Source of the DNA: Takakia lepidozioides
Taxonomy: Eukaryota > Plantae > Bryophyta
Assembly: GCA_030704615.1 (NCBI GenBank)
Contig: CM060733.1
Coordinates: 41,602,001-41,666,000, forward strand
DNA length: 64,000 nucleotides
Direction: 5' to 3'
Shown here: piece by piece, positions 24,752-55,420 of the stretch
Layout of the letters: every line of letters starts with the position of its first letter
Position numbering within the stretch: the first letter of the stretch is position 1
Program-made: the position numbers and the translations under genes
The notes under the pieces: model-generated
What the model was told of the DNA's origin: nothing
The model's database searches: none
Seen by the model: the letters and a program-made list of their open reading frames with translations, nothing else

Positions 24752-25112
24752 TGTCATGGTTTTAGTTATCTAGAATTACCTACTTCTAGTTAACTAGGAC
24801 ATTTTAGATATTTATAATTATATTTTGTGTGTTGGGACTTCATTTGGTCTCACATGCCAAGGGAGGTGTCGAGCCTCACTTGAGACATGGAGATAGGTTT
24901 TCCCCTTGTGAGTGTTGAGGAGGCTCATCTTCTTGTGGTTGAGCCTCCATGAGCCTCTCCCACCTCCATAGCTCTAGGTATTGAGAGGGAGTGTGGTGAG
25001 GGCTTTGTAAGGTGGATTCCTTTAGTAAATGTACCCTTGGCTTGACTTAGTTTATGTGATTGAGTGGATTCATGAGTGGAGTGTTTCCATTGTGTGTTCA
25101 CTTCCATTATCA
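24752..25112 (+). repeat. Element A 5' repeat X1
   Basis: Near-identical to 55508-55874; runs tgtca...ttatca. Confidence 0.92.
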
Positions 25113-26483
25113 CTACAAGAAGATCTCATTATGCTTGTGAGTGCGGAGTGTAAGGGTTAGTTTAGCACTTGTGTGTTGGAGAGAGCTTGATAAAGAGCTC
25201 TTGTGTTGCAAGGTGTTGCAAGTTTTGCAAAGGAAAATCCTTATGGCGTGGAGAACATGGATGTTAGGGTTTGAGAAGCATTATTTTGCTCTATAGAGGT
25301 GGAGAGCTTTTGAAAAGAACTCTTGCATCACAAGAGAAGCGTCTTGTGTGTGGAGAAGATAGACACTAGGGTTTCAAGAGCAAGCTCTAGTTGTTCATGG
25401 TGTGAAAGAGAAGCCAAAGAGTCGCACATGCTTGGGTTGGAATAGAAGGAGTACAACAAGGGTAGTTGAGGAGCATTGAGTAGCTCAAGGAGAAGCTAAG
25501 AAGTGGTTGTTCTATCCATGGTGAAATGAAGCCAAGTGGGGTTTTATTTGGTTGACAAACAAGCAAGCAAAGGCGGCGCTAGAAGGGAGTGTTTTTGCTA
25601 GTTCTATGAGTTCTTGGATTGCTCTTGGTGAAGCAAGTGGTTGACCAAGCAAGTGACGCATGTGTGGGGCATGCTTTCCAAGTGTGGCTTCCAATTCAAG
25701 CTTGAGGAGAGCTAGAAGGTGAAGTGAGCAAGTTCATTCCTTGTGTATGAGGTGGTGCATGTTTTGGAAGAAAAGCCAAGGAGCTATATAGGCTAGGGCT
25801 TGAAGACAACAAAAGCAACCACTTGGAGAGCATCAAGAAGCTCAAGATGACTCTAAAGGGAAGCATGTGGGTGAGATCCATGATGATGTGAAACCAAGCC
25901 TACAGTATTGAAGAGCTTGGAGCACATGTGGGAGATCATTGGAGGTGGTCTTCATGTAGAAAGGAGATTGTGGCTCACGGCATGCATAGCAACTTCAACC
26001 ATACATTAGCATGTGACAAGACAAGGAAGGGGAAGGTGAAGCTCATGTATTGATTCCCTTTTTGCTTAAGTTTTGTGGTGGATGGTTGATCAAGCAAGTG
26101 ATGCTTATGTGGAGCATGCTCTTTAGGGCTTGTGACTTCAAGTTTGAGAAGATGAGCTCTTGAATAGAGGTTGGATACACATTATGATGAATGAAGACAA
26201 CACCTAGGTCAAGAGGTGGAAGTGTGTGAGACTAGCCCTTGCAAGGGAAAGCACATGGAAGATGGCATACAAAATTCAAATTCAAGCAAGGCTTGGCGCT
26301 TGTCATTGGGCACATTAGCTTGCTATGAGTTCCAAGGAGATCAAGAGGAACTTGTCAATTTGGGATGAATGCATTGCAAAGTAAGATAATGCAATCTTGC
26401 ATGCATATTAGGGGGGAAGATACCATGAAGAAGATGTTTCTTACTATACTCTACAAACCTTAGTTTCCATACTCTTCAAGAAA

Positions 26484-26775: not shown

Positions 26776-29700
26776 TGAGGTGTGCGGTTTAGGCCATTTT
26801 CACCTTCAGTGTCTTCTGAGGAAGGTTCAGACTCGGAGTCAGGAAGATTCTCGCCGAGGGTGCAATTCATTTCCATGCCATTGTTGTGGGACACGATGGA
26901 GGAGATGTATGGAGCTACCAAGGGGCCACGTAGGTACTCTAGAGCTGTGGGCACCATCGAGCTTAATGACTTTATATAAGAGTTTGACAGTTGGTGTGAT
27001 TTGCAGCAAATGCGCAATCCACAACTGTTTACGCCCTTTATGGCATGGAAGGGGCTATTCCAGCACCTTGAGGGGCCGCCCATGGATGATTACCATGAAT
27101 TTAGGCGGGGACATGCAGTGGAGATTGAGGAGTGGCGAGAGTATTGGTCACCTAACTATGTCTCAATCACTAGAGGCACAAGGGCAGCGGTGACACCAGC
27201 AGCTACACAAACATCTCCAACTACAAGTACTAGTAGTGGAATAAGTAGTGTCGGTACTTCTGCAGGTGGTACCAGTTCAAAAAGTGCTACTACTCCTCCT
27301 GCCACGACTACAACACATGTGCCTAGATTCAACCCGGTGCTGGAGTTCTTCTAGGAGTTGCGGAGGAACTACCAAGGTGTACGGACAGAGAAGCTGCGAA
27401 GTTTGCAAGACTTCCAGTGCAAATCCAGTGAGAGCTTGCGAGAGGCCTACACTCGTATGAGGCGCTTGATAAGTGTGACCCAAGGGGTTACTGAAGCTCA
27501 GGCAGTCCAGTTGTGGTATGGAATTTTGGACAATGAGCTCAGGAGAAGGGTGCGGGATGCAACCCTGTTACAAGCGGCCCAACCCACATTAGCGGATGTG
27601 TTTCTGCTGGCTGAGTGGATTGAGCTCGACATGGTGGAGGAGCGAGTTATTACCGTTGAATTTGGCAAGGACATGCCTGCACAAGGCGCAGCTGCCAGCC
27701 AACATATACAAGGGACTGCCCAACAGCATGGTCAGGGGGGCAAGGTTGCCCAACCCAAATTCCATGGAGCTTACAGGGGACCTCAGGTGCAGAGGCCAGT
27801 AGTTTCTTTTGCAGGCCAACAGCAACCAGGGGTGGTATGTTGGACATGTGGAGGACCCCATGTCAAGAAAGATTGCCCAGAAAGTGGCAAAGGGCCAGCA
27901 CAAGCACAGCCTGCACAATTGCAGTGTGGGCATTGTGGCAAGTATGGGCATGGAGATGCCCAGTGTTATGACTTGCACCCTGAGTTGCGGCGAGGCCAGT
28001 TCCAAGGGAACGATGGTGGCCGAGGGCAAAGTGGAGCACCTCAGAGAGGACAAGGTGCTCAGGCACAAGGTGCAAGACGAGGGCAAGCACAGTATGGCCA
28101 AGGACGTGGAGGTCAGGGCGTTGACCAAGGTATGGCCAACCGGCTTCAGCAACGGCTCGCTGCCATGGCCACAGCTCAGGTGGTACCAGCTCCAAGACCT
28201 GAGGGTCCACCTTCTGTTCCTCCTCAGCAGCGTCATCCTGACGGAGGAGACATGGGAGGCATGGGATTTATGTGTGGGGCAGCACTACCACTAGTGCAGG
28301 TGGAGTCTGTTGCAGGCGTCACCCGAGGAGTAGCACGAGTTCTTGAGCCACGAGGTGCAGAGGTGGAGTTGGACTCACAACGTGGGGAGGCAAGCCGTCA
28401 GGCTAGGTTGCCTCAATCATTCATCTTGGCGGAGACAGTGTCGACGACATCCATGGCACCTAATTCTCGCCCCACGGATACCGAGGCGGAGGTTATTGTG
28501 CCATTGGGAAGAGCTACACGTGCAGCACTGACACCTGCTGCCAAGGCTAGTGCAGCCAGTGTGTTGTTGGGGGCGGCCACCTTTGTGTGTCAAGCCCCAC
28601 TGTTCTCGGCAACCATGATTGCGACGCCGGGGGTAAGACCAGCTGCAGTATTCAGACTAGCAGCAACACTCTGTGAGAGTGAGGAGGTCACTACATCTTC
28701 TGCGGAGTTAGTGGAAGGTGTAGTGGCAGAGGGATCCTTGGATTTGAGGGTCAAGACTGCCACGGCTACGCCATGGCAAGCTGCAGCTGCCAGGTTGACG
28801 GAGTTACCAGCTAGGCCAGCCTTTGAGCGCGCCATGGTGACACCTAGAGTTGTCTTGTTAGACAACCAGGATGACATTTTCTCTTTGAATGGACCGGCAG
28901 GCAAGAGGTACCGGCCACTGCGGGTCTTGTTGGACTGGGGAGCTCAGCCACTGATGTTGGGCAAAGCCGCTATTGCAGGTTTGGGCCTCATGGAGGCGGA
29001 TATGGAGCCTTGTCCTTTCCAGATACAGACTTCTCTAGGAGGATCAGAGCAGGCTCGGGGCATGATACGGTGTGAGTTGGCCATTAGACTACAGCCGGAT
29101 CATCCTATGTATGGCTCAGTGATGTGAGCCAAGGTCATTGTGACAGACGCGGTCTTTTACGATGTCCTTGTTGGTGGGGCAGTGTTGTATCCCATGGGCT
29201 TCACCCTGGATTTTTGGGAGGAGTTAGCATCCTACAGGCCTGGATGGCAGTCAGGGGATGGTCGTCGTGTACAGCTCCCTGTGACGTTCATTGGGGGTGT
29301 TGTTGTTGCCCAACGGGGCAAGATGCCAACACTAGCAGCCTTCACAGCTGCAGTTAGTTGGCCTGGAGAGTTGCTGGAGGGCAATGCCCATGCAGAGGAT
29401 GTGCCACCTCCAGCAGAGCAGGATGACATGCATGGTATGGCGGAGTTGCTTGCCATGGTTGCTTACACTCCATTGTGGGGTACGAGCAAGGATTTGCAGC
29501 AGGCTGCTGATAGACGGGTGCAACAAGCCTGGGTAGAGGCCTTTGTACCGTCAGGAGAGGAGGAGAGTGCGGTGATTGCACCAGGACCACCTCAGTTGTC
29601 GCCATTGGACACCACACCTCTTGTGTGGCAGTGCCCGGATGAAGGCATATGCCTTCTGGACTTGTTTGGCGGGATTAGCAGTGGATTAGCTGCAGTGCTG

Positions 29701-30898
29701 CAGGCAAGTGTACGAGTACGATGTTACCTATATGTGGAGAGGGATGAGACTGCATGACGCGTCTCACTGCGTTATGTTGCTCAGTTGGTGCAGCAGTACC
29801 CTGATTTGTTGCCAGTGTCTGCAGTTTGTGGATACCAACAAGCATTGCCAGTAGATATCTCCTTGCTGGGGGCGCATGATTTGGAACGGGTTGGCCCTAT
29901 TCACTTAGTAGTGGCAGGTTGGCCCTGCCAAGGGCTTTCATCAGCTGGGTATGGCAATGGGTTACAAGACTCAAGGTCACGCCTGTTTTGGGAAATATTG
30001 AGGGTCCTGCGCTATTTACAACTTCAGTAGTCAAACTCTCCGGCATATATGTTGGAGAATGTGCCATTGATGGGTGATTCTCGGGCCAAGGTGATGGCCA
30101 GTGTACATCAAGTGCGGTCTTGGCTTGGGTCAGCAGTGTTGCTGGATGCAGCTTCAGTGGGGTCACGGGCTCATCGCCCACGACTATGGTGGACCACCTT
30201 GATACCACCTGCATTGCTCAAACGTGCATTTAATGGGGGTGCAACGGCCATCAAACCTGACGGTGGATAGCATTTTGGACATAGGGAGGCAGTCTGAGCG
30301 TGTGAGACACGATGACCGATCACCTTTGGCAGTGGTCAATAAGGTGGGTCACCCACGAGCAGCATTGCCTACACTGCTCAGCTTTCCAGGATCTCATGCT
30401 TTCTGGGATGGTGGACCTGGCCTCTTGTGGGATAGCCAGTTGCAATAGTTAGTGGAGCCCAATGCTGACGAGCGCGAGCGGGCAATGGGTTTCACCACTG
30501 GTACCACGGCGGTGCCATCTCTTTCTGAGGCATCACGTCGTCAGGTGTTGGGGCAAGCAATGGATCTCAATTGCTTGACATGGATTATTAGCTTGGCTAT
30601 GGCTGAGCAGCGCAAAGTACGGAGTACACTTCCCTTGATGGTCTCCCTGCCTACCGAGACGATACAGGCAGCGAGTGGGGGCGAACAGGTGAGGACCACA
30701 AGGTGCAGGCCACATCCATGGCACACGTGGGAGGTGCTCGAGGTTCAAAAGGAGTTGGCAGCTAAGGCGGCCGTGATGGATGAGGTTGGGGATTTTTCTC
30801 GGGTTGAGGAGGTCCTCAAGGATGGGATGATGGGGCAGGATGAGACATTGTCACTGACAGAGGAGGCAGTGGTTATTACTCAAGAGGTTGCAGCATAG
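26776..30898 (+). pseudogene. Element A Gag-protease-DNA methyltransferase polyprotein (premature stops, one frameshift near 30235)
   Basis: ORFs 26782, 27001, 27358, 29140, 29785 and 30049 share one frame. Zinc knuckles CWTCGGPHVKKDC and CGHCGKYGHGDAQC; protease LLD(W/S)GAQ; DNMT motifs follow. Confidence 0.88.
29641..30600 (+). pseudogene. C5 cytosine DNA methyltransferase domain (DNMT3/DRM-like), element A
   Basis: Motif I LDLFGG, II YVERD, IV VVAGWPCQG, VI MLENV, VIII AHRPRLWW, IX ERERAMGF, X RRQVLGQAM. Confidence 0.92.
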
Positions 30899-32290
30899 CA
30901 ACCACGGGACGCGTCTTCTACCTCTAAGCCTGCTGGACTCAAGGTTGCAGTCACAGAGGACAATTGGGAGCCTGATGTTGGACCTATAGTCACCGGAGGA
31001 GAAAGACGACGTATACGGCGGTTCTTGAGGGCTTACAGGAATTGCTTTACCTTCAGTTTGAAGGACTTAGGAGCACTGAAGGGTCAAGAGTTTCGCATTG
31101 AATTGGCTACTGATACGCCAATCTTTCGGAGACCCTATAGATACAGTGACATGGAGAGGTCCTTGATTCAGATGAAAACTCAGGACCTTTGGGAGGCTGG
31201 TTTGGTGGAGTTATCTGGGGGAGAGTATGCTTCAGCCACAGTGATGCAGCCAAGAAGGATGTCTATGGCAATTGGACGGAGAGACGTATGTGTGTTACCG
31301 GCCTGTAAATCGTCAGACCAAGTCCGATAGGTATGCCATGCCGACACCAGAGGAGATCTTTGATGCCATTGGGCATGCCAAGGTCTTTAGCACTTTGGAT
31401 TTACGATCCGGATATCACCAGTTGCCGATCAAGGAGGCGGATAAGCAGAAGACGACATTTTGGGGGATCAATGAGCACGGGAAGGATTGCCTATACCAGT
31501 GGCGGTTCTTACCATTTGGGCTGAAGAACGCTCCGGAAGAGTTTCAGAGAGTCATGGACAGGATTCTAGCAGGGGTGGAGTTTGATCGGTGCTACATAGA
31601 TGACATCATCATCTTTAGTGCTACGGTGGAGGAGCATGAGAGACACCTTCAGGTGATATTTGAGCGCTTGAGGGCGCACGGATTGAAGTTACATCCGGGG
31701 AAGTGCAAGTTTTTCCACAACCAAATTGAGTATCTAGGTCACATGATATATCCTGGAGGATTGGGGGTATAGCAGACTAAGGTAGAGTCCATTGCACAGA
31801 TTCCACGCCCCACGGATGTGAGCCGAGTTCGAGCTTTCATGGGGTTAGCAAACTATTATAGACAGTTTGTTAAGGGATTTAGTGCCATTGCAAAGGCTCT
31901 AACCAAACTGACCAAGGTGGACTAGGAGTGGCAGTGGGAAGATGAGCAAGAACAAGCTTTTCAAGAGCTCAAGGCGAGGTTGACCTTGGCGCCCATCTTG
32001 AGACGACCTATCAGGGGGCGTCCTTTTCAGCTGCATACAGATTGGAGCATGCTGGGGCTTGGAGCGGTGCTCACACAGGTGGATGATGAGGGAAGAGAGT
32101 TTGTAGTAGCTTATGCTAGCCGCTCGAACAATGCTGCAGAGTCTAAGTATAGCTCATATGAGGGAGAATGCTTAGCTGCAGTTGGGCCGTGGCACACTTC
32201 AGGTGCTATCTATACGGCAATCTCTTCACCCTTGTCACGGATCACCAACCACTCAAGTGGTTGATGGAGTCAGACAAGCTTACGGGGAAG
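30899..32290 (+). pseudogene. Element A RT and RNase H (cut by the P-like insertion at 32290)
   Basis: LDLRSGYHQ, LPFGLKNAP, YIDD, TDWS, AYASR, YEGECLA motifs. Confidence 0.92.
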
Positions 32291-32669
32291 CCTGGGGGGT
32301 GCACTCCTCATTAAATGTACCAGCCACGTGCGTGCACAGGAGGGGGTATTTTAAACCCCCCCATGTACAACATTATACATACAGAGGGGGGTTTAAAACA
32401 CCTTAAATATAATTTTACAGGAGGGGGTTGTTGAGTTTTAAGGGATAGTGTAGTGGTAAGAATGACGATTACGCCGCGATGCACCGCGGGATCGTCGTTT
32501 TGTTTGTTTGTGTTTTTTTTCGCTCCACGATCTTTCTCCCCTGACCTCCCGCGGCTTTCTCTTTTCTTTCTCCTCCTCTCCCGCGTTCGCCTTCCCTTCC
32601 GCGGGCTTTCTCTTTTCCCTCCTCTCCTCTCCCCTCCTCTCCACAGGGCATGGTAGGACAATGTGGTGA

Positions 32670-35600
32670 GGGCACCTTCTTCTTCGACCTATTTCAGTAA
32701 GCTCATTTCCCTTTGAATGCCTTGCTGCATAGGCTCGTTGCTGTGCCTTCTGTGCTGAACCTACACTGTCCCGCAATGTGCTTTGAAGCTCATGAATTAG
32801 CGTGATCTCTTCCTCCATCATCCTTCGCCTTGCTGCCTGGTCATCAGTGAGCTCCACTAGCTCCGCAATCTGTCGACACCTGTTGTCTTTTGGTTTTCCA
32901 TGAATTGCAATTATTCTCTGCCTCAATCTTCCGGTCATGTGTTCTACCAGATCGTCGGGCAGATCGTTGTAGTGTGGGTAACGTAGCGCCAGGTGCGCCC
33001 AACATCCTTTCTTTTGTGTCCAATATCCATAGATAAACACAAATGGCAGTTTCTCCGCTCCTCCGTATTCTTCCGTCACTGAGTGCATCAATCGCGTTTG
33101 TAGTTCAGTTATAACTGCTGCCCCCCATACATTCTTCCCTTCACTGCACGTGGTGCTCATGCTTGACGTTTCATGGGTATGTTCTCCAGTGCTCGTCGTG
33201 TATGTTCTACTTTCGCCGTTTTCCGTTGCATTTCCGCTTGTGAGATTTTGCCCTGCTTGCCTTCTCGTTCTTCCCTTGTGTAATTAGGCTCTTCACCAGT
33301 CTGAAAATAATACCCTTCTGCCTTCAAATGCACCTTTTCTTTACATCTTTCGGATCGTGTTTGAACCATGTTGATTCGGGACAGGTCTCTCTCCTCATTC
33401 ACCATATGTCGCAGCTCCTTGCCAACCAGCATCCCTCGGCAGATATTCCATGCTGCCATCATGTTGCTCCACTTGTATCTTTAGTTGTAGTGACAGTTGC
33501 TTGGTTCGCCGTTGTGTTTGCAGCCCGAAGGTCATCCCACACCTGCTCAGCTGCTCTTCTGCTTACTGGGTACCCCTGTTCCCTTCTTGTGATCTCTAGC
33601 ATATCCCAATTAGCAGTAAGTGACCTCCTTGTGCCTCCCTTCCTTTTGCACTTGCACCGTATTACCCTCCTTTCACATACAAGGACTATAGTTTCCTTCC
33701 CTTGCTTGTGTAATTGCTGATTTCTTCAAAAGAAAGTTGTTTCATTGCCCCTAAGCAACTCACTGTATCAGGCCTATTCTCCTCCTTATTCCCCTTTCCG
33801 TTGGAATGAGCTGCACGTGTTTTCCATGCAGACATACCATTTCTTCTTCTTGCAGGACCCTTTGCCCAACCCTGTTATTTCTATCATTTGTGCCATTCTC
33901 TTTGCGTTTCCACAACCTCCCCTCATTGCCAGTGAAGTGTTTCCTTCTCTTCCCTGTGTCTTTAAAGACACTCCAACTCTTAGCTGCAGTACCCTTCGCT
34001 GATTTCTTATTGCCTTTGACCTCATGTATGTTTTCAATCATGTTTGAAGGGTGATCACTTGCTGCCATATGCATGACTGTGTCCTTGACTGCTTCTCTTG
34101 TCTCAGTATGATGTTTAATTGTTGTCATGTCAGGCCGTGCTCAGCTGCACCGTGGTGTCTTCGTGGTGGTTTGGAGTGACTTTGCAGATACTGTCGATGT
34201 GGCAGCAGGAAAGTACCCAAAAACAGATAACAGAGATGAAGATAAGCTTTGGAATGAACACTTTTCTGACATGCAATTTAGAGTTGGAACTACTGTAATA
34301 AGTAGGGTTTGGGGTGTTTACTGAAAGAACTTCACGCCGTGAGTGTCAGCTGCTAACAGCAAGGCTGAGGATATATTCATGATTTGTTCACAGGCAGGGA
34401 TAGCTGAAGACCAGGGATAGAGGTCCAGATTCATCCAAGAGGGCCGGATTTCACACACAAGATTACGTCTGATTCCCTGTGGATCAATAGCTACAAGAAA
34501 TCTGTCTGGGTAGATGGTCAACTGGAAACAACAGCGGCAACAACGGTTGTAGAGCAAGGACTACTGATAAAGGTACCTTCTTCAACACATTTGTGGTGAG
34601 GTCACCTTCTTCTTCGACCTATTTCAGCCTGTTTTTCCCTCTCATCAGACTCATTAGCTCATTGGGATGATCTGTGGTGGTTTGGAGTGACTTTGCAAGT
34701 TACTGTCGAAGTGGCAGCAAGAAAGTACACAAAAACAGATAACAGATTGTACTCATAAGACGTTGTTTGCCGTAGCCTTGTGGCCATTGACCCCGCGCAC
34801 AGTTTGAGCGGGAACAAAAGGGACAGAACCTACCTCTGTCAGGGGCTGCTGTGTGTGATTTGCCCAAAAACTAGGCCTCAGGAGGGCCTAGGCTTTTGGC
34901 TCAGCCTCAAGACTTCCAAAGTTGGTAAACAGGGGTACAGGCACAATTCCCTTGATAGATTTGAAGAGAGCGTCTCTTTGGTGAGAGAACCCCGGACACT
35001 GTATCAGAAAATGAATATTGTCTTCAGATTGCCCACACAATGGGAAGTGCACTCCCCCTTTCCTCTCTGCTTCTGTTTGCTCTTCAAAGGTAGGCTTCCT
35101 TCCCTGAGTTTAAATTTCAGTCTAGTGCCGAGAGTGGGTGGACCCTTGAGGTCATCCAAGATGTCCTCCCCCATGTCAATGACTAGAAACAAGTTCAGGG
35201 AAGTTTTCTGCCTAACTTCATTTTCATCAGACAATCTCATGGCAACAGACATGGCTTTGGACACTACAGCCTCTAAGTCGGATTTATCTAGCAGGGTCAA
35301 GACTTGCGGATCCAGGTCCAGGTCCTTGAGAATCTCTTCTACTCTGGTGTTGGGAAAACACCTTTTGATCTCAGTCCAAACCAGGAAGTGGTCAGAGGTA
35401 CCAATATCAGTTCTGTCGATCAACACATTGGCACACTGGGGGAACAAAATTTTGTCCATTATGATATAGTCCACAATGGAACGTTCCCCAGTTTGGGATT
35501 TCTCACGAGTCCACTGCACTTGGTCACCTCTTGTCTTGTTATTCAAGGTCAAAAGCTGAAGCTCTTCCAGACAGTTAATTAACCGTCTGCCATTAGAATT

Positions 35601-35690
35601 CAGCTCGTCCTCACCAGAAGACCCAATGATATCGTCCTGATGGAGCCCTTTGCCCACTTGGGCATTGAAGTCACCCTGCAATAGCACCAC
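32670..35690 (-). pseudogene. Scrambled LINE fragments carried inside the P-like element (AP endonuclease pieces)
   Basis: 35690-35300 LQGDFNA...SIVDYI...TSDHFLV matches APE motifs. 33462-33300 AWNICRG..ELR..INMVQT resembles the APE N-terminus. Confidence 0.7.
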
Positions 35691-36310
35691 AGAGATGAAG
35701 AGAAGCTTTGGAATGAGACACTTTTCTGACCCCAGTCAATGGTGGGACAATGTGGGTGGATGGTCAACTGGAAACAGCAGCGGCAATAGCGCAATTGATA
35801 GAGCAAGGCACTGCTGATGAAGGTACCTTCTTCAACACATTTCAGCCTGAGGGCACCTTCTGGTTTGACCTGTTTCAGCCTGTTTTTCCCTCTCATCAGA
35901 CTTAGCCCTGAAGCATATGTATTGAATTCTGTAAGTTAGCTTGTTGGGTGGATCTGCAGTGCTTTGGAGTGACTTTGCAAGTTACTGCCGAGGTGGCAGC
36001 ATGACAGTACCTAAAAAAAGATAATAGAGATGGAGAGAATCTTTCAAGGAATGGATACTTTTCTGACCCCAGTCAGTGGTGGGACAATGTAGGAGATGGT
36101 CAACTGGAAATAGCAGCGGCAACAGCGCAATTGATAGAACAAGGGACTGCTAATGAAGGTACCTTCTTCAACACATTTCAGCCTGTTTTTCCCTGTTATC
36201 ATAGTCGTCCCTAAATTTCCAGATGGCCGGATTCCAAGCTCCAGATTACCTATGATTCCATGTGGAAGGATAGCTACAAGAAACCTGCATGGGTAGATGG
36301 TCAACTGGAA
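34150..36310 (+). repeat. Shuffled modular repeats
   Basis: ttggagtgactttgca..gtggcagca at about 34170, 34680 and 35965; gatggtcaactggaa at 34513, 35759, 36096 and 36297. Confidence 0.7.
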
Positions 36311-36831
36311 GCCACTGTAGCAGCTGCAGAGGCATGATGTACGCATTGTTAGTGTGGAGGGAGGGGTAGCTGTTGATGCAGGGAGAGGATCGTGGGTGCA
36401 AAAATCATCCAAGAGGGCCAGATTTGGAGCAAGGAACAGTGCTGGCAGGAGTTCTATAAATATGATCCACAGTGGTGGGACAATATTGTCAACAAGGTGA
36501 GCTTTCTTCATGCAACATCATAGGGAGTTGACAGAACTTTGTATTTAAATATGTTAGTGTGGAGGGAGGGCTAGCCGCTGATGCAAGGATGGACTGTGAG
36601 TTCAGGATCACCCAAGAGGGCTACCAGCAGTGGAAGTAGCAGCACTTGGTCAATAGCAGCAGCAAGAATTAGCAGCGTCAAACTCATCAATCAGGTACTT
36701 GCTTCTGTACACATTTCATCCTCTTATCAACGTAGTCCCTGCTTGGACAGCCTATAGGGCTGTATAAAACAGGACTTTGGAACCTTCCAACCCGGGTGCT
36801 TTGTTATTGGTCTATCAAGGTCTGATTTGAA

Positions 36832-39800
36832 ATGTTTTCATTGCATTTTGCAGGTGAACTCATCATGGAAGAAGAGTTGGAAGTAAAAGTCCTGCTCATT
36901 GGAGGAGATGCATCACCAAACAGGCTTGGTTCTGTGTTCACTATGCAAGGTGTCACATACAAATGCATCCGAGCAGAAATTCTAGGTGATGAGCTTGTCT
37001 CAGGAAAATTTCCTTTCCTTTCCATGGGGGGTAGTGTCCTTTCAGCCAAGCAGGAAGAGATGATGGTTCTGAAAGGGGATACTATACACATTAAGATTTC
37101 AGACCAAAATGATGGGGACCAAGGATTGAAAAGACCTCTATCTTCGAGTGGCTCTACGATCTTGCATGAGGACAGACCAGGCGAGGACCCGGCACCAGTG
37201 TCTAAAAAGATGAGGATGGACCCTGATACACCCTTTGCTGGCGATGGTGGAAATGAAGACCATGCACATGAGCATGCACTTCAGCAAAGATATGGTAGAT
37301 TGTGCAGCACGTTGGCTACATCCAGCGATATTCAAAAATGGCAGAAAGAGATTAGAGCCGTTGAAAGGAAAATCTCTGCAGAAGGACGATGTGACAAGTT
37401 TGAGCTCATGACAAAGGATCAACAAGGACAAGCAATGTTCCACATATGGTGTGTTGAGTGTGAGGATGTTTATGCACGGTATGGGAAAAACAAACCATAT
37501 GATGCATGTGCAAACTTTATGAGATCTCATTTGAGGAGTGAGGGGCATCGCATAGCCTATGAGAGGCGTCATGGGAAGGGTTCATCACAATGTGTCATCA
37601 GCCCTGTAAATGCAGATGAAGCATTAGATGCAAAGAAGAACAGGGTGAAGGAGGCATTAGAGGAAGTCACTCGGTTTTGTGAGGACAATCTTGGACAGAT
37701 TGAGATTGTGGAAGCCACAATTGGAGACTATTCGCAGTTGGGTTCCATAAGGATTAAGTGCGCACTTGATTCGAAGTGGCTACTCTTGTTTCCAAGGACA
37801 GGTTCTTTGCAATCTTCTTTGACAGAGCATGTGAAAGGAAAAACTCATGTCGATGCAGAGATTTGCCAGAAGGTTGGCAGTAGTGAAGGACTGTGCAAAA
37901 AGAGAGGAAGGCCTCCAAAGCCTATGATTGCCAAAGATGTAAAGCAACGGGATCTAAGCTCTTTCTTGGTCAGTCAACTTGTGTTGCCGTCCCCACCACT
38001 TGACAATCCAATTGTGGCATCAACAATGGGAGCATCCTCGTCACAAACTCCATACACTTGTGTTGACGCTACCCAACGGGCAGATCTGATTGAGGATTGA
38101 CAATTACAGCGACGGTCCCAATGCAACAAAGGAAGAGACAGTTTGTGTTGGGGCCTATGGGATGAATGGTGGGAGTACAACCACAAGAGAATAAGTCTGA
38201 AACCATTCCTTCAAGATAGCAAGGGAGGAAAGAAGTGGTATGTCGAGCCGTTGACACATGCAACCATCACTCTAAACAATCAAGAGCATAAGGTTGTTGG
38301 TACGTTTCGGCACGCGGATTGTTTTAGAGTGTCATTGGATGGGGAGCTATTTCCAAACTTGAGGTGTTCAACATGTTCTTCCATTCCCTTGGAAAATGAT
38401 TTCAGAATGAGGGTATATAGAGAGAGAGGTGCCATGGAATGTAGAGGGGAGAGAGATACTGGCAAGGGAAGAAGGTTGTCATATCTTGGAAATGCCGAGA
38501 TTGTCAAACAAGTTTACAAAAACAGACAGGAGTTGAGGTAGTTGAGGTTCAAATTGTGGGAGGCCAGGACCAAAGTGGCATCCTTGTCTGTGCGATGTAG
38601 GAGTTTGAAGGAGTCTGGGATTGAGGCAATTGAAAGAGGAGACATTCTCAAATTTTGTCGTGATATTGTTGATGCACATAGGAGGGAGGATTTTGAAGGA
38701 AAAGAAAGTTTGTGGGATTTTCTTGTTGATATGGGCAAGAATATTGACAGGTCTCCACAAGAGAAGAGGTATGGTACTAGCACAAAAACAATGTTTGAGA
38801 CTGTGCAGCTTTGGGGGGGGTCCGAGATTGCATCATTTTGGCTTCAAATGTGGGGGGTCCTTCTATTGATACTACAAGACGGTCTTTGAGGAAAGGTTTG
38901 AAGTATAGAGCGGGAGAAACATATGATATATTTCAGCATGTGGCTGGAATTTACAGAGATGTGATGGAAGATGCAAATATTCCAATGGGAAGCATCCCAG
39001 TGATGGTGGCCAAAGATGAAACTGTTGTGAAGCGATTGGTACGTTGGATTGCTAGGGATGACACCCTTCTCGGGTTTTGTGGGCTTCAAGACAACCATGT
39101 ATGTATTTCAAATTTTGTGGTGCAAGTGGGAGAAGGGGAATCAGGGTACGAACATATTGTGGAGGCATTAAAAAACAATGTGGTTGTCCATTACGCCAGA
39201 GTGTTGATAGCAAATCCTCTACATGTACGGTTACCTCGATTGGTATTAGTAATCCAGCTCACTTGCAATAGATTTGACAACAATTTTGTGAGATCACAAT
39301 GGGAAGTGGTGAGATAGTTGTGGGACAAATATGTGAGGGACGTGGTTGGGCCTATAATTGGGCATGCTTCAGACGGAGATAGTAGGAGGAGAAAAGTGAT
39401 GTTAGAAGATTATGCCAATGGGGCTGGAAGTAGATTTTGCATCCTTTGGGAAGGATGGTTGTTTACAGGTCGAGTGTGCAACGGGGGAGATATATACGGA
39501 CTCCATGATCAAGACTTCATCCACAAAGAGAAAAAATTGGTAAATCCCTTGGACAGTGCATCACGGACTTTGGTGTTGGGTGATGAGGTTGCTACATTGA
39601 ATCATGTGTTATTGGTCTACCATTCATTTTCAATGGACAAGCATGGACTTCGGGAATGTGATATCAAAAGAGAAGATCGACAGAATTGGGCAGCAGCTCA
39701 ACGACTGGCATCTCGGAAGGTGCAAGCTTGTTTGAGGGAGTTACAATCAACTGTGAATCATCGAAGAGAGAGGACCAAAAGTACTGAAATTTACCTATAC

Positions 39801-40303
39801 ATCATTTCATGCTACATCGACATTTTTTTGTCTCCTCACATGTCATTGTGTGAGAGGGTACAATTTGCTGCGAAGGTATCGTTTTTTTTCAGATTGTGGA
39901 AGTTGTGGCTATTCCACCACGAGGTGTATAATCTGAAATCCTTCTTCATTAGCAGGGAAGCATACTTGGATTTACAAATTTCATGCCACTACGTGGTTCT
40001 ACTTATCAAATTGTTCAAGGATAAGTTTAATCATGTGCAAGTTCTTTTGAGCCTTGTTGGTTCAGATGTGTGTGAAATATTCTTCAGCAAAGTGGGAGGT
40101 ATGTTACGGAATGAGAAGACATATGACGGGTGTGATTTGATTGAGAGTGCGGGAGCATTAACACGCATATCCAAGTTCGAGGTGAATCCAAAAGGACCCA
40201 AGTTCTCAAGAGCTCACAAGAAACAAGAACACATTTGGTCTTCTTTGGAGAAGAAGCCAGGTATCCCCCTTGCTGATTTGTCCAACTTTTCTACTGTCCA
40301 ATC
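36832..40303 (+). pseudogene. P-like transposase, N-terminal and catalytic part (stops and frameshifts)
   Basis: C2H2-like fingers (CVEC..H..H) and an AT-hook KRGRP. Catalytic-type motifs KDET, ASDGD, DFIHKEKKLVN (DxxH..K), DRQNWAAAQRL and SDVCEIFFS. Confidence 0.75.
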
Positions 40304-41329
40304 TGTCAAGTTAAATAAGCACAGTGTGAAAACAGCTAGAATAAAACTAGTTATTTGTATTTAACACTTGGATTTAGGTCAAGTGTTAAATCAGGTGTCA
40401 AGTTTAGTTTGACACCTGGTCCGTCTTATCTTCACGAGAGCGGCAGTCGCGCGGCTCATCTTTCTCGAGTTGAGCCTACGCGACCGAGCTCCTTCATGCG
40501 TTTAGATTTGAGTGTGCTTATGATGGGAGTGTAGGTTGTTGTGGGGTGGAGTCCCCATAGCTTGGGGTGCCCCTGGCTCGACTTCTGTTTTAAAGAGTGA
40601 TAGCGATGGATTCATGTTGTTTCTGGTGTGAGCAGTGTGTTTTCTAGTTTTCTTATCACTCGAGAAAGATGCTCTCTTACCTGTGAGTGCAAGGTAGGAG
40701 TTGAGGGTTAGCACTTGCAAGATTACCTACGTATAAATAGTGCTTAGTTTGAGAAGCATATCATTGAATGTGACCACAAGATTCAGCGTGCCCTGAAACG
40801 CCTGGAGGATGACGATGCCAGAGCCGCCACTGTTATTGCAGTCGCTGAAGCTACCAAGTCACTAGAGGCTTTGGGGTTCACAAGGAGATACTTAAAAATG
40901 CAACAGCAAATGCTAGTTGGCACCTATGCATGATCCTTGAAGCTGGATGATCGTTTCACCAGTAAGCTTATAGAGGAGCCTGCTGTTGCAATTGTTTCTT
41001 GTATCGGGGTCGGTCTTGGACCAAAATTTAGCTTCAGCTTCTTTGTCAATCATTTGCTTTGATCATGCAAGAGCGCCATGCAGCGGGTTAAGGGGCAGGG
41101 CTATGGAGCAGAAAAGCGACATCCTCTTCGCAATGCGCAGAGGACGGAGTTCCGTGTATATGGTTGCTATGGAGCCTCGCCAACAGTAGAACTTTGCGCT
41201 TTCCGTTCTTGGGGTTGCTGCATTGTATGCGCCCTAGGATCCGGGCTTGGAATTGTCTTCTGACCAATTCAGCAGAAACGAACGACGAACGTACTCTGGC
41301 CTGATTCCCTACAGTAAGCAGGAGATATA

Positions 41330-41969
41330 TAGCTCAACGCCATCAACGAGTACACCTAAGGAGGTTGTACACCACAGCAAGTGCCGTCAGAATCTTGTCG
41401 CCAGAGGATCCAGGCTAAGCAGCATACGATGGCCACCTCACGGCCAAGCTTGGAACGGCTCTTACCATACCATATGAGGAACTTGTCGAAGTAGAGGAAA
41501 AAACTTTCACAGACATGTCTGGCGAGATTTGAAAGAGTAGTTTTCTTGCTTTGACGTTGTTTCATGTCCTCTGGTTCATGGAGCTCATGACAACAAAAGT
41601 CGAGCGGCAGCGGACGTACTGGGCGCCGAGCAGAAAGGATGGTCAGGGGGACGACTGTTTCCCTTGCCCAGCAGCTAAAGTCGTAGTTAAGGCCACATAA
41701 CACTTGACGGTGGTGCTAAGGTCACCTGCAGGAGCTTCATGATAAGTGTCCCAGGATCCGTCAGTTCTCTGCAGGCTCCGAATGCAACGCACGACTTTTT
41801 CTTTCTTTGGGTCATCTGTAACGCCCAGGAAATGCATAGCCAGAATCCACTCCGCTTCCATTGTACAGCCTGATTCGACCTGGCCCGCCCAATAGCCCTC
41901 TGGATTCTGCTTACGGAAACTCCAGTCAATTGCATCGTTGATGACCTGATCAAGCGGTGTTGCATCCAT
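41330..41969 (-). pseudogene. shc: Squalene-hopene cyclase N-terminal fragment (intronless, internally deleted)
   Basis: QNPEGYWAGQVESGCTMEAEWILAMHFLG..QRTDGSW..GDLSTTVKCYVAL / YDFSCWARETVVPL / WILWRQDSDG..GVQPP*VYSLMAL show QW repeats and SHC-specific blocks. Confidence 0.85.
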
Positions 41970-44180
41970 GGACTCGAATGCTCCCATACACCCACTTCCC
42001 TGCAGTAAGCAGTTCACATTCACAAAAGTGCTAGAGTTTCAGCTGCAGGATGGAGACGACGGGTTTGGGAACGGCGGAGCCGAGCTACGCTGGGGATAGA
42101 CGAGCGATTCAGGAGCCAGGGCTTTCTCCCCCGTAACTGGAATGGGCCGGGGACCCGCAAGCTCCAGCACAAAGTCCAGTGCTTCCCGCTGGTAATCCTC
42201 CTCAGTGATTTTCGTTAGCCACCAAGGCCTCGAACAGACTGTGAGTGACCCCTCGCCTGTACATGGCGTCCATAAACATGTCCATAAACATGTCTTTCCT
42301 CCCCCTCTCTTGGTGCGCAAGCCTGCAAGCAATCACGGAATCCACTCTCTTTCACAACAAGACACTACTGAGTGCCACAGTTCCCTTCCTCTCTCTCTCT
42401 CTCACTCTCGGTATGCAGAAGACTGGAGCAAGGTGTGAATTATAGGGCACGTTGCCAGGGAACCTAGGAAACCATATAGAGCGTAGGGAACCGGGAACCA
42501 GTTACCAGATAGTTTAGGTGTAACTTTAAATTTTTAAATTTGAAAACCTTAGAAAAAAAAAAAAAAAAAAAAAAAAAACAGGGCATTTTGATCTAATTTA
42601 AATGATTTAAAGCCAAATTGGTCATATCTTTGTCAAATGGACTCTGTTTGACCCAGTTTTTGAGGGGATAGCTGCAGAAAGGGGAAATCTACCATTCTAG
42701 ACCTGGTTTTTGTTTTTAGGACTCTGCTAAAAATCATCTGGAATTTTTAGAGTGTGAGTGTGCCATGAAAGATCCACAATTCTGTTTCTAGAACCTGTGC
42801 TGGTCTATATGAGAGACAAATCTGTGGATGTACTCCTTGTATGGCTGGGGGAAATGAGGACGTAATTGAAGGGCAGGTCTCTTCTTCTTAGCCTGTGCAC
42901 ACAAGGGGACAGGATTTATGTTTCCCAAGGAACTCAGACTGATTTGAGTGGAGACAGTTGGACGAGTTGATTGCATACTGGGAGTCAGGCATTAGCAGTA
43001 GACAACAGACTCTGTAGTTGGCGTTGAGGGCCTCAATATCGCTTTGGACAGTCAGAACTCTGTTGGAGCCAGCAGTTCTGCAGCTGTAAGTGAAATACCA
43101 AAGTGGGTGAAAGCTAGGCTTGGAACACAGCCAAAGACAGCCCCGGGGACCAAGGTGTTCAGCCGCAAGGCTGTGGTGTACTGGAGCAGAGGAGCAGGAG
43201 CTACACAAGTTTGTGCAATCAGACAGCGTTTGCAGCCGGACACGCTCTGCACAAGGCAACCACGAGCGAGGGTTCATTAGCGAGGACAAGTTTGTTCTGT
43301 TTGAAGGAGATGCAGTCATTCGCAATGAGGACACCGCACCGTCTCAAAGCTTTCGAGTTGAGAGACTATCATACTCTACCTTTGTTTCTTAGTGTTCAGT
43401 GAGCGGGGAATAGCAGAGTGTTGCTTTGTCTCTACTTGGCAAAAAGAGGAGGAGGGTTGGTTAGAGCGAGCTACTGTAGCTTGGGACAAAGGTTAGTAGC
43501 AGGTTTCTGGACATAGATATACCTCCTACACCTTACCATCATGCAGAGCGAGGCACTTTGAGAGAAGTCTGGCAGTTGATAGCATAGATCAGGATTAGAT
43601 CTTGCTGGGTCGGGCTTTCTATTCTTCCCCCCATCTCTGTACTATTTTCATTACCTGTTACTTGTAGTTGCCAAAGCCTCTCTTGGGAGGCCAGTCAGTC
43701 CGGGGTTTTGGGATATTCTGCAGGATCAGCGTTGCTGCTGGATTTTGGTGTGGGGTGTTGATGTTTTGATTTCTTGTGTTGGATCCCCCCAACACCTGCA
43801 TGCTTGACTGTGCGCCATGTTTGTTTTGTGTGGGCGCTTGCTTTCATAGGGATTAGGCCGGATTTGATCACCGGTCAATCCTAGAGTATGCTGTCGGTGG
43901 TGAGGCTGGAGTGATGACCAGCAAGACCACCAGTGTTTCTTCTATGGTGAGGCTAGGTTGATGACCAACCAACCATAGGAGTTCTTGCGGTGGATGCAGG
44001 TGCAAGTGCCCTGAGCCATTGGGATATGACCCTTAGACTGCAACAGGTGCCCACCCGTGTCACTATTAGATTAGTACTAGAGACTTATAGTGTCACGTGG
44101 AGGAGGTGCACATTGTGAGTGTCATTACGGAGTTACCCAAGGGTTTTGAGGGGAGTACGGCTACAAGCAGTACCAGTGAG

Positions 44181-47100
44181 ATGAGGTTCACAAGACGAGG
44201 TATTCGGTTCAGACCACCTTCACCGCCACCCTCAACTACTGGAGAGTCAGACACAGACTCGGAGGCTTCATCAACAGGTGTGCACTTTCATTCGCCATTG
44301 TTCTGGGAGGAGATGTATGGAGCTACCAAGGGGCCTCGTAGGTACTCTGGAGCTGTGGGCACAATCGAGTTGGATGACTTTATCCAGGAGTTCGATAGCT
44401 GGTGTGATTTGCAGCAGATGCGCAATCCACAGCTATTCACCCCATTCATGGCGTGGAAGGGACTGTTCCAGCATTTGGAAGCCCGCCTATGGACGATTAC
44501 CACGAGTTCAGGCGGGACATAAGCAGAGATTGAGGAGTGGAGGATGTATTGGTCACCTGACTACGTCTCCATTACTCGAGGCACGACGCGACCAGTAGCT
44601 GCACTCATTCAGTACCAATAGCTCCCACTGCCAGCACTAGTAGTGGAGCAAGTAGTGCTTGGTACTTCTGCAGGTGGTACCAGTTCAAAACGTTGCTACT
44701 ACTCCTCCTGCCACGACTACAACACATGTGCCTAGATTCAACCCGGTGCTGGAGTTCTTCCAGGAGTTTGCGGAGGAACTACCAAGGTGTACGGACAGAA
44801 AGCTGCGAAGTTTGCAAAGACTTCCAGCGCAAACCCAGTGAGAGCCTGCGAGAGGCGTACACTCGTATGAACGCTTGATAAGTGTGACCCAAGGGGTTAC
44901 TGAAGCTCAAGCAATCCCATTTTGGTATGGAATTTGGATAAGGAGCTCAAGAAAGGGTGCGAGATGCAACCCTGTTACAAGCAGCCCAACCCACATTAGC
45001 ATATGTGTTTCTGCTGGCTGAGCGATGAGCTCAACATGGTGGAGGAGCGAGTTGTTACCATTGGATTTGGCAAAGGACATGCCTACACGAGGCGGTAGCT
45101 GCCAGCCCACAGGCCACAGGAACCGCTCAACAGCGTGGTCATGGGGGCAAGGTTGCCCAGCCCAAGTTCCATGGAGCTTACAGGGGACCTCAGGTGCAGA
45201 GGCCCGTGGCATCTTTTGCAGGCCAACAGCAACCAGGGGTGATATGTTGGACATGTGGAGGACCCCATGTCAAGAGAGATTGCCCAGAGAGTGGCAGAAG
45301 GCCGGCACAAGCACAGCCTGCACAGTTGCAGTGTGGGCATTGTGGCAAGTATGGGCATGGAGATGCCCAGTGTTATGACTTGCATCCTGAGTTGCGCCAG
45401 GCCAGTTCCAAGGGAACAATGGTGGCCGGGGGCGAGGTGGACCAGCCCAAAGAGGACGAGGTGGTCGGGCACGAGGTGCAGGCCAAGGGCAAGCTCACAT
45501 GGCCAAGGACGCGGAGGTCAGGGTGTTGACCAAGGCATGGCCAACGGCTTCAGCAGCTAGAGCAGAGGCTCGCTGCCATGGCTATAGCTCAGGCGGTACC
45601 GGCTCCCCAGGCGGGATGGTCCACCTCCTGCTCCTGAGGGAGGAGATATGGGAGGCATGGGATTCATGTGCGGAGCAGCACTACCACTAGAGCAGGTGGA
45701 GTCTGCTGCAGCCGTGACTCGAGGAGCAGCACGAGTTCCTGAGCCACGAGGTGCAGAGGTGGAGTTGGATCCACAACGTGGGGAGGCAAGCCGTCAGGCA
45801 GGCTTCCTCAGTCATTCACCTTGGCGGAGACTGTCACGCCATCCATGGCACCTAGTTCTCGCCCGACTGTTACCGAGGCGGAGGTTACTATGCCATTGGG
45901 GAGAGCTACACGTGCAGCACTGACACCTGCTGCCAAGGCTAGTGCGGCCGGTGTGTTATTGGGGGCAGCCACCTCTGTGTGTCAAGCCCCACTGTTCTCG
46001 GCAACAATGATTGCGACGCCGGGGGAGACCAGCTGCAGTGTTCAGACTAGCAGCAACACTCTGTGAGAGTGGGGAGGTCACTTCATCTTCTGCGGAGTTA
46101 GTGGAAGGTGTAGTGGCAGAGGGATCCTCGGATTTGAGGGTCAAGACTGCCACGGCTGCGCCCTGGCAAGCTGCAGCTGCCAGGTTGACGGAGCTGCCAG
46201 CTAGGCCAGCCTTTGAGCGCGCCATGGTGACACCTGGAGTTGTCTTGTTAGACAACCAGGGAGGCATTTTCACTTTGAGTGGACCGGCAGGCAAGAAGTA
46301 CCGGCCACTGCGGGTCTTGTTGGACTCGGAGCTCAGCCACTGATGTTGGGCAGAGCTGCTATTGCAGGTTTGGGCCTCATGGAGGCGGATATGGAGCCTT
46401 GTCCTTTCCAGATACACATCTAGGATCAGAGCAGGCTCGGGGCATGACACGGCATCAGTTGGCCATTAGACTGCAGCCGGATCATCCTGTAGATGGCTCA
46501 GTGATGCGAGCCAAGGCCATTGTGACAGACGCGGTCTCTTACGATGTCCTCGTTGGTGGGGCAGTGTTATACCCCATGGGCTTCACCCTGGATTTTTGGG
46601 AGGAGTCAGCATCCTACAGGCCTGGATGGCAGTCAGGGATGGTCGCCGTGCACAGCTCCCTGACATTCATTGGGGGTATTGCGCTGCCCAGCGGGGCAAG
46701 ATGCCAACACTAGCCGCCTTTACAGCTGCAGTTAGTTGGCCTGGAGAGTTGCTGGAAGGCAATGCCCATGCAGAGGATGTGCCACCTCCAGCAGAGCAGG
46801 ATGACATGCATGGTACGGCGGAGTTGCCTGCCATGGTTGCTCACACTCCATTGTGGGGTACGAGCAAGGATTTGCAGCAGGTTGCTGATGACGGGTGCAA
46901 CAAGCTGGGTAGAGGCTTTTGTACCGTCAGGAGAGGAGGAGAGCGGGATTGCACCAGGACCACCTCAGTTGTCACCATTGGACACCACACCTATTGTGTG
47001 GCAGCCGGATGAAGGCATTTGCCTTCTGGACTTGTTTGGCGGGATCAGCACCGGATTGGCTGCTGTGCTACAGGCAGGTGTGCGAGTTCGACGTTACCTG

Positions 47101-51200: not shown

Positions 51201-51371
51201 CTGGCAGTGGTATCTGCAGGTTTGAGGTGCATGTTGTGTGGGTCTGCTAAAGGGGCAGCCACCATGCTGGTGTGTGATCGATGCTCTAGAGGTTGGCATA
51301 TGGGATGCTTGACTCCACCTCTTGAGATGGTTCCGGATGGGGATTGGTTATGTCCACATTGCATTGGATAG
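48261..51371 (+). pseudogene. Element B RT-RNaseH-integrase-PHD
   Basis: YIDD; RNase H TDWS/TDHQPL; integrase HHCC (HAHEELGH..CMVC), WSLDF, LTDQG, AER; C-terminal C4HC3 PHD CMLC..CDRC..HMGC..WLCPHC. Confidence 0.92.
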
Positions 51372-51629
51372 TGGGAGTGGATACAACCATGGAAGGCTAA
51401 CAAGAAACGCAAGGCCCAGCTACTAGGAGACCTTGAACACACGAGGTCCTGGCTCAAGTTCACAGATTGCAAGACGGCGACTAACGATGGGGCTACTCTT
51501 GTACCGGCCTCTTGGTCTATAGAGTTTGAGTACAATAGGGACAGTGATAGAGGACTTAGTACGGCTGTGGCTATTACATCTTGTAGCTATCTGGAGGTAG
51601 AGGGACCTATCCACCAGCTAGGGGGCGAT

Positions 51630-52155: not shown

Positions 52156-52159
52156 GCTC

Positions 52160-53136: not shown

Positions 53137-53428
53137 TTAATTTGTTAGATTTTATTATGTTTTAAATGAATAAATTCGATATAATATAAAAACATACATA
53201 TACATATTGGAGGGTTATTTTTAATGATGGAAAATGAGAATATACATACAGAAGGGGTACTTTTTAAAAATTGTAAATTTTTGTATATTTACAGGAGGGG
53301 GTTTTATAATTTTCAAAAAGTATGTACAGAGGGGTATAAATTATCCAAGGACCCGTATACAGGGGGTTTTTTTATTAGGCGACGAACGCACGTAATACGC
53401 ACAGTTTATAAAGAGTGCACCCCCCAGG

Positions 53429-55164: not shown

Positions 55165-55420
55165 TGGGAGTGGATACAACCATGGAAGGCTAACAAGAAA
55201 TGCAAGGCCAAGCTACTAGGAGACCAACACACGAGATCCTGACTCAAGTTCAGAGATTGCAAGACGGCGACTAACGATGGGGTTGCTCTTGTACCCGGCC
55301 TCTTGGTCTATAGAGTTTGAGTACAATAGGGACAGTGATAGAGGACTTAGTACGGTTGTGGCTATTAGATCTTGTAGCTATCTAGAGTTAGAGGGACCTA
55401 ACCACCAGCTATTGGGCGAT

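Follow-up and report, generated by a model that had tools for sequence, protein, structure and literature searches.

DNA methyltransferase (DNMT) domains are known from retrotransposons. KnitGypsy-Dnmt3 of Klebsormidium nitens is an acquisition in which the DNMT lies within the Pol open reading frame (ORF) and the repeats are DIRS-like, and SymbioDIRS-Dnmt3, a dinoflagellate element, combines split repeats with a DNMT3 that methylates CG de novo in yeast (de Mendoza 2018, PMC5890265; here and below, sources cited by accession are represented by their accessible text). The KnitGypsy-Dnmt3 kind is referred to under 'streptophytes' in PMC12344493 and bioRxiv 10.64898/2026.05.21.726589, whose supplements may include bryophyte copies; the accessible text of PMC6453930, PMC11982613 and PMC10952607 holds nothing on element-borne DNMTs, and that of PMC6317226 has 0 occurrences of 'methyltransferase' or 'Marchantia'. 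Here we describe two DNMT-bearing Ty3/Gypsy elements, A/C and B, in a 64,000-nt stretch of the Takakia lepidozioides genome (Bryophyta; assembly GCA_030704615.1, contig CM060733.1, positions 41,602,001 to 41,666,000; hereafter the window). The fusion itself is already known; new are its green-plant-wide range, a Gag-level placement of the DNMT predicted from a conserved stop, and a proposed permuted integration of the long terminal repeat (LTR). In the literature searched (mainly open-access, Repbase not included), we found no paper on DNMT-bearing Gypsy elements in land plants, no description of a conserved stop after a retroelement DNMT and no account of self-priming or a permuted LTR in such elements; among the mainly open-access papers, the legend of Fig. 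4c in PMC5890265, as far as its accessible text goes, was the only mention of integrase elements with split repeats.

Both window elements have the order Gag-protease (PR)-DNMT-reverse transcriptase (RT)-RNase H (RH)-integrase (IN)-PHD, and the Gag-PR-RT-RH-IN order, the DDE integrase and the 4-bp target duplication are those of Ty3/Gypsy. With KnitGypsy-Dnmt3 they share an intron-less DNMT3-like domain in a Ty3/Gypsy polyprotein, purifying selection on that domain (Ka/Ks below 0.2), the order PR-DNMT-RT-RH-IN (also in K. nitens KFL_009030040, P0327, taken as that element), and a DIRS-like repeat layout on a Gypsy body, the last compared with the Fig. 4c legend and not with K. nitens DNA. The split direct repeats and the common domain order thus tie the element to KnitGypsy-Dnmt3 (PMC5890265). 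Unlike in KnitGypsy-Dnmt3, a conserved stop lies between DNMT and RT, which leaves the DNMT in a Gag-level ORF rather than continuous with Pol; the C-terminal PHD, self-priming and LTR permutation are not mentioned in the accessible text of that paper, and the lineage, described there as belonging to K. nitens, extends to bryophytes, Closterium and chlorophytes. The likeness to SymbioDIRS-Dnmt3 lies in a DNMT3 within a retrotransposon with split repeats; that element, however, uses a tyrosine recombinase (PMC5890265), whereas the window elements have rve and H2C2 integrase matches and 4-bp target duplications, which set them apart from the DIRS, PAT and Ngaro elements with their tyrosine recombinase and no target duplication.

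A preliminary description of this DNA, made from the sequence, had reported a DNMT3-like C5 methyltransferase between protease and RT of a land-plant Gypsy polyprotein, and the domain is real. In copy A, the DNMT of A/C, three-frame translation and motif mapping placed motifs I (LFGG, 29662), II (YVERD, 29731), IV (GWPCQ, 29917), VI (ENVP, 30055), VIII (AHRPR, 30169), IX (ERER, 30470) and X (GQAMDL, 30551), a full set in canonical order spanning 29662-30568, between the aspartic-protease motif and the RT. The same domain had been claimed for copy B, where motifs I, II, IV, VI, VIII, IX and X (at 47032, 47101, 47287, 47425, 47538, 47836 and 47917) likewise stand in order between protease motif and RT, spanning 47032-47934, with the catalytic Cys intact. 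The PF00145 check proposed at the time gave matches above the curated Pfam cut-off of 22 in both (copy A, E 4e-12, 46.6 bits; copy B, E 2.3e-12, 47.4 bits), and each copy combines this match with motifs I, IV (PC), VI (EN), VIII (RxR), IX and X, as in C5 methyltransferases. The statement that the domain of A is in frame with Gag-PR applies to motifs I-VIII; motifs IX-X lie in a different frame, past a frame change at about 30235-30290 and with an extra stop at 30446, and the Gag-PR frame has five stops (26977, 27352, 29125, 29755 and 30028). The position between protease and RT is correct as an order, but the DNMT is not continuous with the RT, TAG-CAA-CCA intervening at 30896 and 48258; having recognised the fusion, the preliminary description missed this conserved stop, the PHD finger and the split direct repeats. 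Neither window copy is able to make the DNMT protein today. Part of the many 1-base gaps in copy B may be assembly errors. A same-species sequencing run yielded 7,039 contigs that align to 1.5 kb of copy A, and among the 40 of 213 differences listed these mostly show another letter at its stops 30028 and 30446, so that the two lesions are private to copy A within a multi-copy family. Run X7, presumed to be RNA, covers 18 of 30 bins and is not counted as a sign of expression.

Tests of similarity and fold for the DNMT3 class were run on an intact relative, L007, in place of the broken window copies. Its top 29 of 49 PDB sequence matches were DNMT3A/B/C, ahead of any DRM-type or bacterial enzyme (best DNMT3A, E 1.9e-11; all non-DNMT3 matches 8e-5 or weaker), and a structure model with a predicted local distance difference test (pLDDT) score of 86 matched DNMT3A/B/C at every rank listed in the fold search (template modelling score 0.61-0.70). 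The motif order is unpermuted, unlike that of DRM. As judged by motifs, sequence and model, the domain is a DNMT3-like C5 methyltransferase, in agreement with the preliminary description.

The ratio of nonsynonymous to synonymous divergence (dN/dS) of the DNMT is 0.167 between copies A and B (248 codons) and 0.09-0.20 between families, the latter rough values with dS near saturation; two decayed copies of one family gave 0.58. HRxR is kept in 149 of the 157 stored proteins whose domain match is strong, EN in 125 and GWPC in 114, and the S-adenosylmethionine (SAM)-binding loop, catalytic Cys, Glu and RxR are conserved in most members, from chlorophytes to bryophytes. By these ratios, the domain is under purifying selection. 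A dN/dS near 1, loss of the catalytic residues and restriction to the two window copies had been named beforehand as outcomes that would refute the preliminary interpretation; the ratio is low, the residues are largely retained, and DNMT-bearing relatives amount to 34 proteins, 80 loci kept of 113, and 512 clusters (50% identity) at profile E<=1e-30. Synonymous divergence between A and B is higher in the DNMT (dS 0.39; 29644-30613 against 47014-47979) than in the RT (dS 0.105), and the terminal repeats are only distantly alike, which makes A and B mosaic subfamilies.

Named DNMT-bearing kin include Marchantia polymorpha, Calypogeia fissa and two Sphagnum species, with up to 76% identity; the nearest named ones are bryophytes, in keeping with the land-plant assignment, and no fern or seed-plant names occur among the named DNMT-bearing rows of the best 120 matches listed. 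Marchantia, Calypogeia, Sphagnum, Closterium, Klebsormidium and Tetraselmis all carry the domain at the same position, in frame and free of introns; in the Closterium, K. nitens and Tetraselmis relatives the DNMT precedes the RT, and a Coleochaete transcript encodes a close ORF2. In the RT tree (a quick tree of 136 rows with midpoint root, built from selected proteins together with every complete RT-RH row), the window elements group with Marchantia, Calypogeia and Sphagnum-type rows (7 rows; Shimodaira-Hasegawa-like approximate likelihood ratio test, SH-aLRT, 91), and the same grouping appears (12 rows, SH-aLRT 99) in a quick DNMT tree of 63 selected rows that covers retroelement DNMTs and 7 phage enzymes, without host DNMT3/DRM sequences. 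With the cyclase fragment in the leader of B, these groupings suggest a land plant without seeds, and probably a bryophyte, as host. In neither tree does K. nitens come out as sister to the window copies; the window and K. nitens RTs share a 120-row clade (SH-aLRT 98, very short stem of 0.012) that excludes 16 outgroup-like rows, with no closer grouping. A search of viral contigs returned only 30 phage-type C5 enzymes, with 30-50% identity over short stretches, which served as outgroup only. The range across liverworts, peat mosses, Closterium and chlorophytes points to one old lineage, where the DNMT-Gypsy fusion was formerly thought a Klebsormidium peculiarity. Because the lineage lacks paired LTRs, it is missed by standard LTR annotation, and its ORF1s in Marchantia and Sphagnum proteomes are labelled 'hypothetical' or as DNMT genes, with the result that the number of host DNMTs can be overstated. 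The chlorophyte-type loci L067-L070 and L072-L077, unbroken where the domain is complete, place the DNMT after RNase H and ahead of integrase, which means that its position in the polyprotein has shifted. NCBI files one ORF2 of the lineage (P0352) under an uncultured cyanobacterium; it is likely plant DNA in a metagenome bin. L030 (14712-17318) holds a second, more distant element with a PHD and a B-A-B right end.

The TAG-CAA-CCA stands 94 codons past the DNMT region in both window copies. At the matching position, 48 of 53 DNMT-RT junctions have TAG or TAA followed by a CAA/CAG-derived context; two more have TAA-CAA-TCA, which brings the total with a CAA/CAG-type triplet after the stop to 50, two have an unrelated stop and one has none. 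Across 38 in-frame linkers (3711 codons), stops number 61 in the linker reading frame, the conserved one accounting for 38, compared with 226 and 144 in the two remaining frames; 31 of the linkers have an HPW-type motif ahead of the stop. In Marchantia, several ORF1s (1278-1281 aa) are free of breaks and terminate 76 aa past the domain; ORF1s in databases, from Marchantia, a Calypogeia-type family (1319 aa) and further families (1228-1437 aa), terminate 72-141 aa beyond the DNMT. The unbroken Marchantia ORF1s, with the good genetics of that plant, make the role of a transposon DNMT directly testable. Among elements and viruses that use readthrough (tobacco mosaic virus, TMV; SIRE1; murine leukaemia virus, MuLV; Tca2), a stop followed by CAA-NNN without downstream structure is of TMV type (PMC2194720, PMC3441728), and CAR-YYA alone is sufficient for TMV readthrough (PMC2194720); the window stop differs in following Gag-PR-DNMT, not Gag or Pol. 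No conserved RNA structure was found downstream of the stop in four sequences (z +1.1 to -1.0), and a MuLV-type structural signal was rejected. It is quite likely, from this pattern of stops and linkers, that Gag-PR-DNMT (ORF1) is the main product and that RT-RH-IN-PHD would be made by readthrough.

In place of two full flanking LTRs and a tRNA primer site, the elements have an A..B-A-B or A..B layout and a self-complementary site. Both A/C and B are built as A1-body-B1-GC-A2-B2, and neither has two LTRs; the B/A junction, palindromic in A/C (55502-55511), lies at 51711-51720 in B. The layout recurs in L024/L047, L040 and L055 and partly in L016, L021, L030 and L079. Four-bp duplications match at seven of nine testable insertions (window A/C, L024/47, L040, L055, L062, L029 and L031+L032, the last pair counted as one insertion), L036 and window B being the two without, and a G-rich tract directly precedes B1 in all ten right ends examined. 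The polypurine tract before B and the 4-bp duplications together suggest that the inserted A-int-B(-A-B) form is likely a circular permutation of a B-A LTR. Right ends are B-only in nine distinct loci versus B-A(-B) in five, and the B-only ends look no older (L057 unassigned; L023/L029 and L034, being rearranged, not counted); a complete A-body-B insertion, target duplication included, is present at L062. The 12-16 nt directly 3' of A1 are complementary to part of A, some 29 nt downstream of a TATA box. Window A/C, window B and the Sphagnum-type family have different letters in this pairing without loss of complementarity, a covariation across three families. In seven of 17 left ends, at least 11 of 13 positions form Watson-Crick pairs, a level reached by no more than 1 of 200 shuffles for each.

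PAT, Ngaro and TOC elements share the A..B-A-B layout, and IS3-family circle junctions and foamy-virus LTR-LTR cleavage are cases of insertion via a junction of abutted ends; the window elements differ from PAT/Ngaro/TOC in lacking a tyrosine recombinase and in having a retroviral-type integrase with target duplication. The end anatomy suggests that a retroviral-type integrase can act from a circle junction. The window elements resemble the self-priming Tf1/Tcn1 chromoviruses (PMC6317226, PMC2864245) in having no tRNA primer site and, directly past the left repeat, a sequence complementary to a site some 29 nt downstream of a TATA box; they differ in carrying a PHD instead of a chromodomain and split, permuted ends instead of two full LTRs. 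A solo A-B unit of the A/C family (12102-12397), internally deleted, has a clear TATA box and no matching 4-bp duplication in its flanks. GCT at 52156-52158 directly follows the right end of B, like the start of the internal junction; with no target duplication matching in its flanks, this end is perhaps a truncated tandem.

The PHD finger stands at the integrase C-terminus in both window elements, where Pfam gave no match to the chromodomain that defines chromoviruses. The position of the cage Trp is Gly in 113 of 124 relatives, and the best matches are CHD4, PHF12, KDM5 PHD1, ATXR5 and BHC80. The fingers of CHD4, PHF12, KDM5-PHD1 and BHC80 read unmodified H3, as does the ADD domain of animal DNMT3, a parallel to the PHD of the element. 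On these similarities we lean, if only slightly, towards a cage-less PHD that would read unmodified H3 tails and steer integration.

Putting these parts together, we propose that Gag-PR-DNMT is made as ORF1 and that RT-RH-IN-PHD would arise by readthrough of a leaky stop. The protease would probably cut the DNMT free inside the particle, where the enzyme, presumably produced in large amounts along with Gag upstream of the stop, would with somewhat better than even chances methylate the element's own cDNA before integration, the new copy then arriving marked like host repeat DNA; the preliminary description had likewise put forward release by the protease, with the cDNA or the insertion site as target. 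We give similar modest preference to self-primed reverse transcription with B-GC-A as the true LTR: priming after A and a purine tract before B would yield B-GC-A-body-B-GC-A, and the integrase would insert a circular form by cutting the palindromic B/A junction, GACA-GC-TGTC. Inserted forms would be circular permutations cut at this palindrome, a one-LTR circle giving A-body-B and a two-LTR circle A-body-B-A-B. Integration from the circle junction, if it occurs, would be a way of replicating not previously described among LTR elements, and one that would deliver pre-methylated copies. The complete combination, an old green-plant Gypsy lineage with a writer (DNMT3) and a reader (PHD) whose bryophyte branch has a DNMT at Gag dosage, self-priming and circle integration at a palindromic att site within the LTR, is offered tentatively and is rather unlikely to hold as a whole.

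Several observations weigh against this proposal. Both window copies are dead, and the K. nitens DNMT domain showed no methylation in yeast, a result inconclusive by the authors' control, human DNMT3B being likewise negative in the same test (PMC5890265). CpG depletion was rejected as a trace of self-methylation (observed/expected 0.44-0.57 in the elements versus 0.40 in the neighbouring insertion). The 53 junctions come mostly from one family, some from the same insertion, with at least five families present; the linker of the dominant family matches named Sphagnum proteins, and its context is CAA-CCC. Exact CAR-YYA occurs in only five of the 53, and 23 stored ORFs, some of them spliced gene models, continue from DNMT to RT without a stop, so that the stop is a branch-specific design, one predicted to bring the DNMT to the dosage of Gag. 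In the Hariotina, Tetradesmus and Haematococcus (chlorophyte) relatives the DNMT lies between RNase H and integrase; together with the stop-less ORFs, this means that the lineage as a whole does not depend on Gag-level dosage. Several relatives (Sphagnum-type and L053 families) have a Met directly past the stop, which makes reinitiation possible. Ten of the 17 left ends, all decayed, fall below 11 of 13 self-complementary pairs, and A-B-A left ends number 0 of 15 distinct ones, which weakens a symmetric 2-LTR-circle model, since this predicts A-B-A-int-B.

Some of the evidence admits other explanations. One bears on expression and ends, leaves the role of the DNMT unchanged and is independent of whether the enzyme serves cDNA, chromatin, binding or nothing: RT-RH-IN-PHD could be produced by splicing or reinitiation, and A-int-B copies could arise by B1-B2 recombination after insertion. 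NCBI gene models of Marchantia and Sphagnum do splice across the stop (P0015, P0032), but the predicted splice sites differ between models and the linker is in frame and coding up to the stop. Reinitiation would suit the families with a Met after the stop, but not the window copies and L007, which have none there. Deletion between B1 and B2, direct repeats about 350 bp apart, would preserve the target duplication, yet B-only right ends outnumber the others among distinct loci and appear no older. We regard this explanation as unlikely, though worth keeping in view. The passenger reading, in which the DNMT is a neutral, recently captured host DNMT3 fragment like the cyclase piece in the leader of B, could appeal to the broken state of both window copies and to the unrelated host gene piece that B did capture; the low dN/dS and the conserved in-frame, intron-less placement from Marchantia to Tetraselmis refute it, and we give it practically no credence.

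Two further alternatives keep the domain functional and differ in its target or its activity. Once released, an active enzyme might work on host chromatin (the insertion site, rival elements or its own genomic copies) instead of the cDNA. Bulk production ahead of the stop would yield free enzyme, the host DNMT3 of Physcomitrium is a de novo chromatin enzyme (PMC10952607), and host-benefit and insertion-site roles are among those listed in de Mendoza 2018 (PMC5890265); but the domain itself includes no targeting module, the PHD lying on the integrase side of the stop, and the chlorophyte arrangement, with the DNMT beside integrase at Pol level, fits action on cDNA, so we hold chromatin as target to be fairly improbable. 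The conserved function might instead be binding, which would shield cDNA or RNA or mark one of the two identical B/A junctions, thereby limiting integrase to a single cut. Consistent with this are the lack of activity in yeast (PMC5890265), the retention of the domain wherever the PHD/split-repeat lineage is seen and a cut site that appears asymmetric, given the missing A-B-A left ends. Pure binders, however, usually lose the SAM loop, Cys, Glu and RxR that most members retain, and a binding role seems to us doubtful at best.

Table 1. Coordinates of the features of elements A/C and B in the window.
Feature	Positions	Strand	Remarks
Repeat A1, left end of A/C	24752..25112	+	Begins TGTC, ends TCA; 4-bp target duplication AAAT
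Candidate self-priming site of A/C	25113..25124	+	12 nt complementary to 24927-24938 (and 55689-55700) within repeat A
Gag of A	26896..28000	+	Two CCHC knuckles at 27838-27876 and 27925-27966
Aspartic protease of A	28825..29292	+	Catalytic Asp 28933; recognised by motif and similarity to Marchantia P0003
DNMT3-like C5 cytosine methyltransferase domain, copy A	29644..30613	+	Broken: stops 29755, 30028, 30446; frame change ~30235-30290
Conserved in-frame stop ending ORF1 of A	30896..30904	+	TAG CAA CCA, CAR-YYA context; predicted readthrough site
RT and RNase H of A/C	30965..32290	+	Interrupted by 21-kb insertion
21-kb insertion splitting A/C	32291..53428	.	16-bp terminal inverted repeats, 8-bp target duplication; holds element B
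Left end of B	40304..40671	+	A1 40304-40658, then 13 nt complementary to 40457-40469
Gag and protease of B	44313..46638	+	Frameshifted
DNMT3-like C5 cytosine methyltransferase domain, copy B	47014..47979	+	Catalytic motifs present; frame changes near 47453, 47604, 47654
Conserved in-frame stop of B	48258..48266	+	TAG CAA CCA, CAR-YYA context
RT, RNase H, integrase and PHD finger of B	48324..51368	+	PHD 51102-51368, PF00628 E 1.1e-11
Right end of B	51618..52155	+	G-rich tract, B1 51628-51714, GC, A2 51717-52069, B2 52070-52155
Remainder of A/C	53437..55161	+	RNase H tail, integrase 53899-54888, PHD finger 54895-55161
Right end of A/C	55409..55960	+	G-rich tract, B1 55419-55505, GC, A2 55508-55874, B2 55875-55960

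Element A/C spans 24752-55960, flanked by the duplication AAAT (Table 1). Copy A and the fragment 53437-55960 are one element; a reading of A and C as two elements was rejected, since they are contiguous across the 8-bp duplication. A Pfam scan of the protease region of copy A (28825..29292) gave no match. Element B (40304-52155) is nested inside the 21-kb insertion, which is possibly an unclassified DNA transposon; long ORFs of the insertion at 36826-40364 and 52223-53133 have no Pfam match, and those scanned no NCBIfam match, and a LINE endonuclease fragment lies within it at 35007-35735 on the minus strand. The 3.6-kb leader of element B contains an antisense 5' fragment of a squalene-hopene cyclase gene (41359-42038, minus strand; PF13249, E 2.4e-26; TIGR01507), apparently intron-bearing, which is a captured host gene piece. 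Squalene-hopene cyclases occur in seed-free plants. Elsewhere in the window, hAT transposase and LINE zf-RVT fragments are found at 6336-6947 (minus strand) and 11609-11899.

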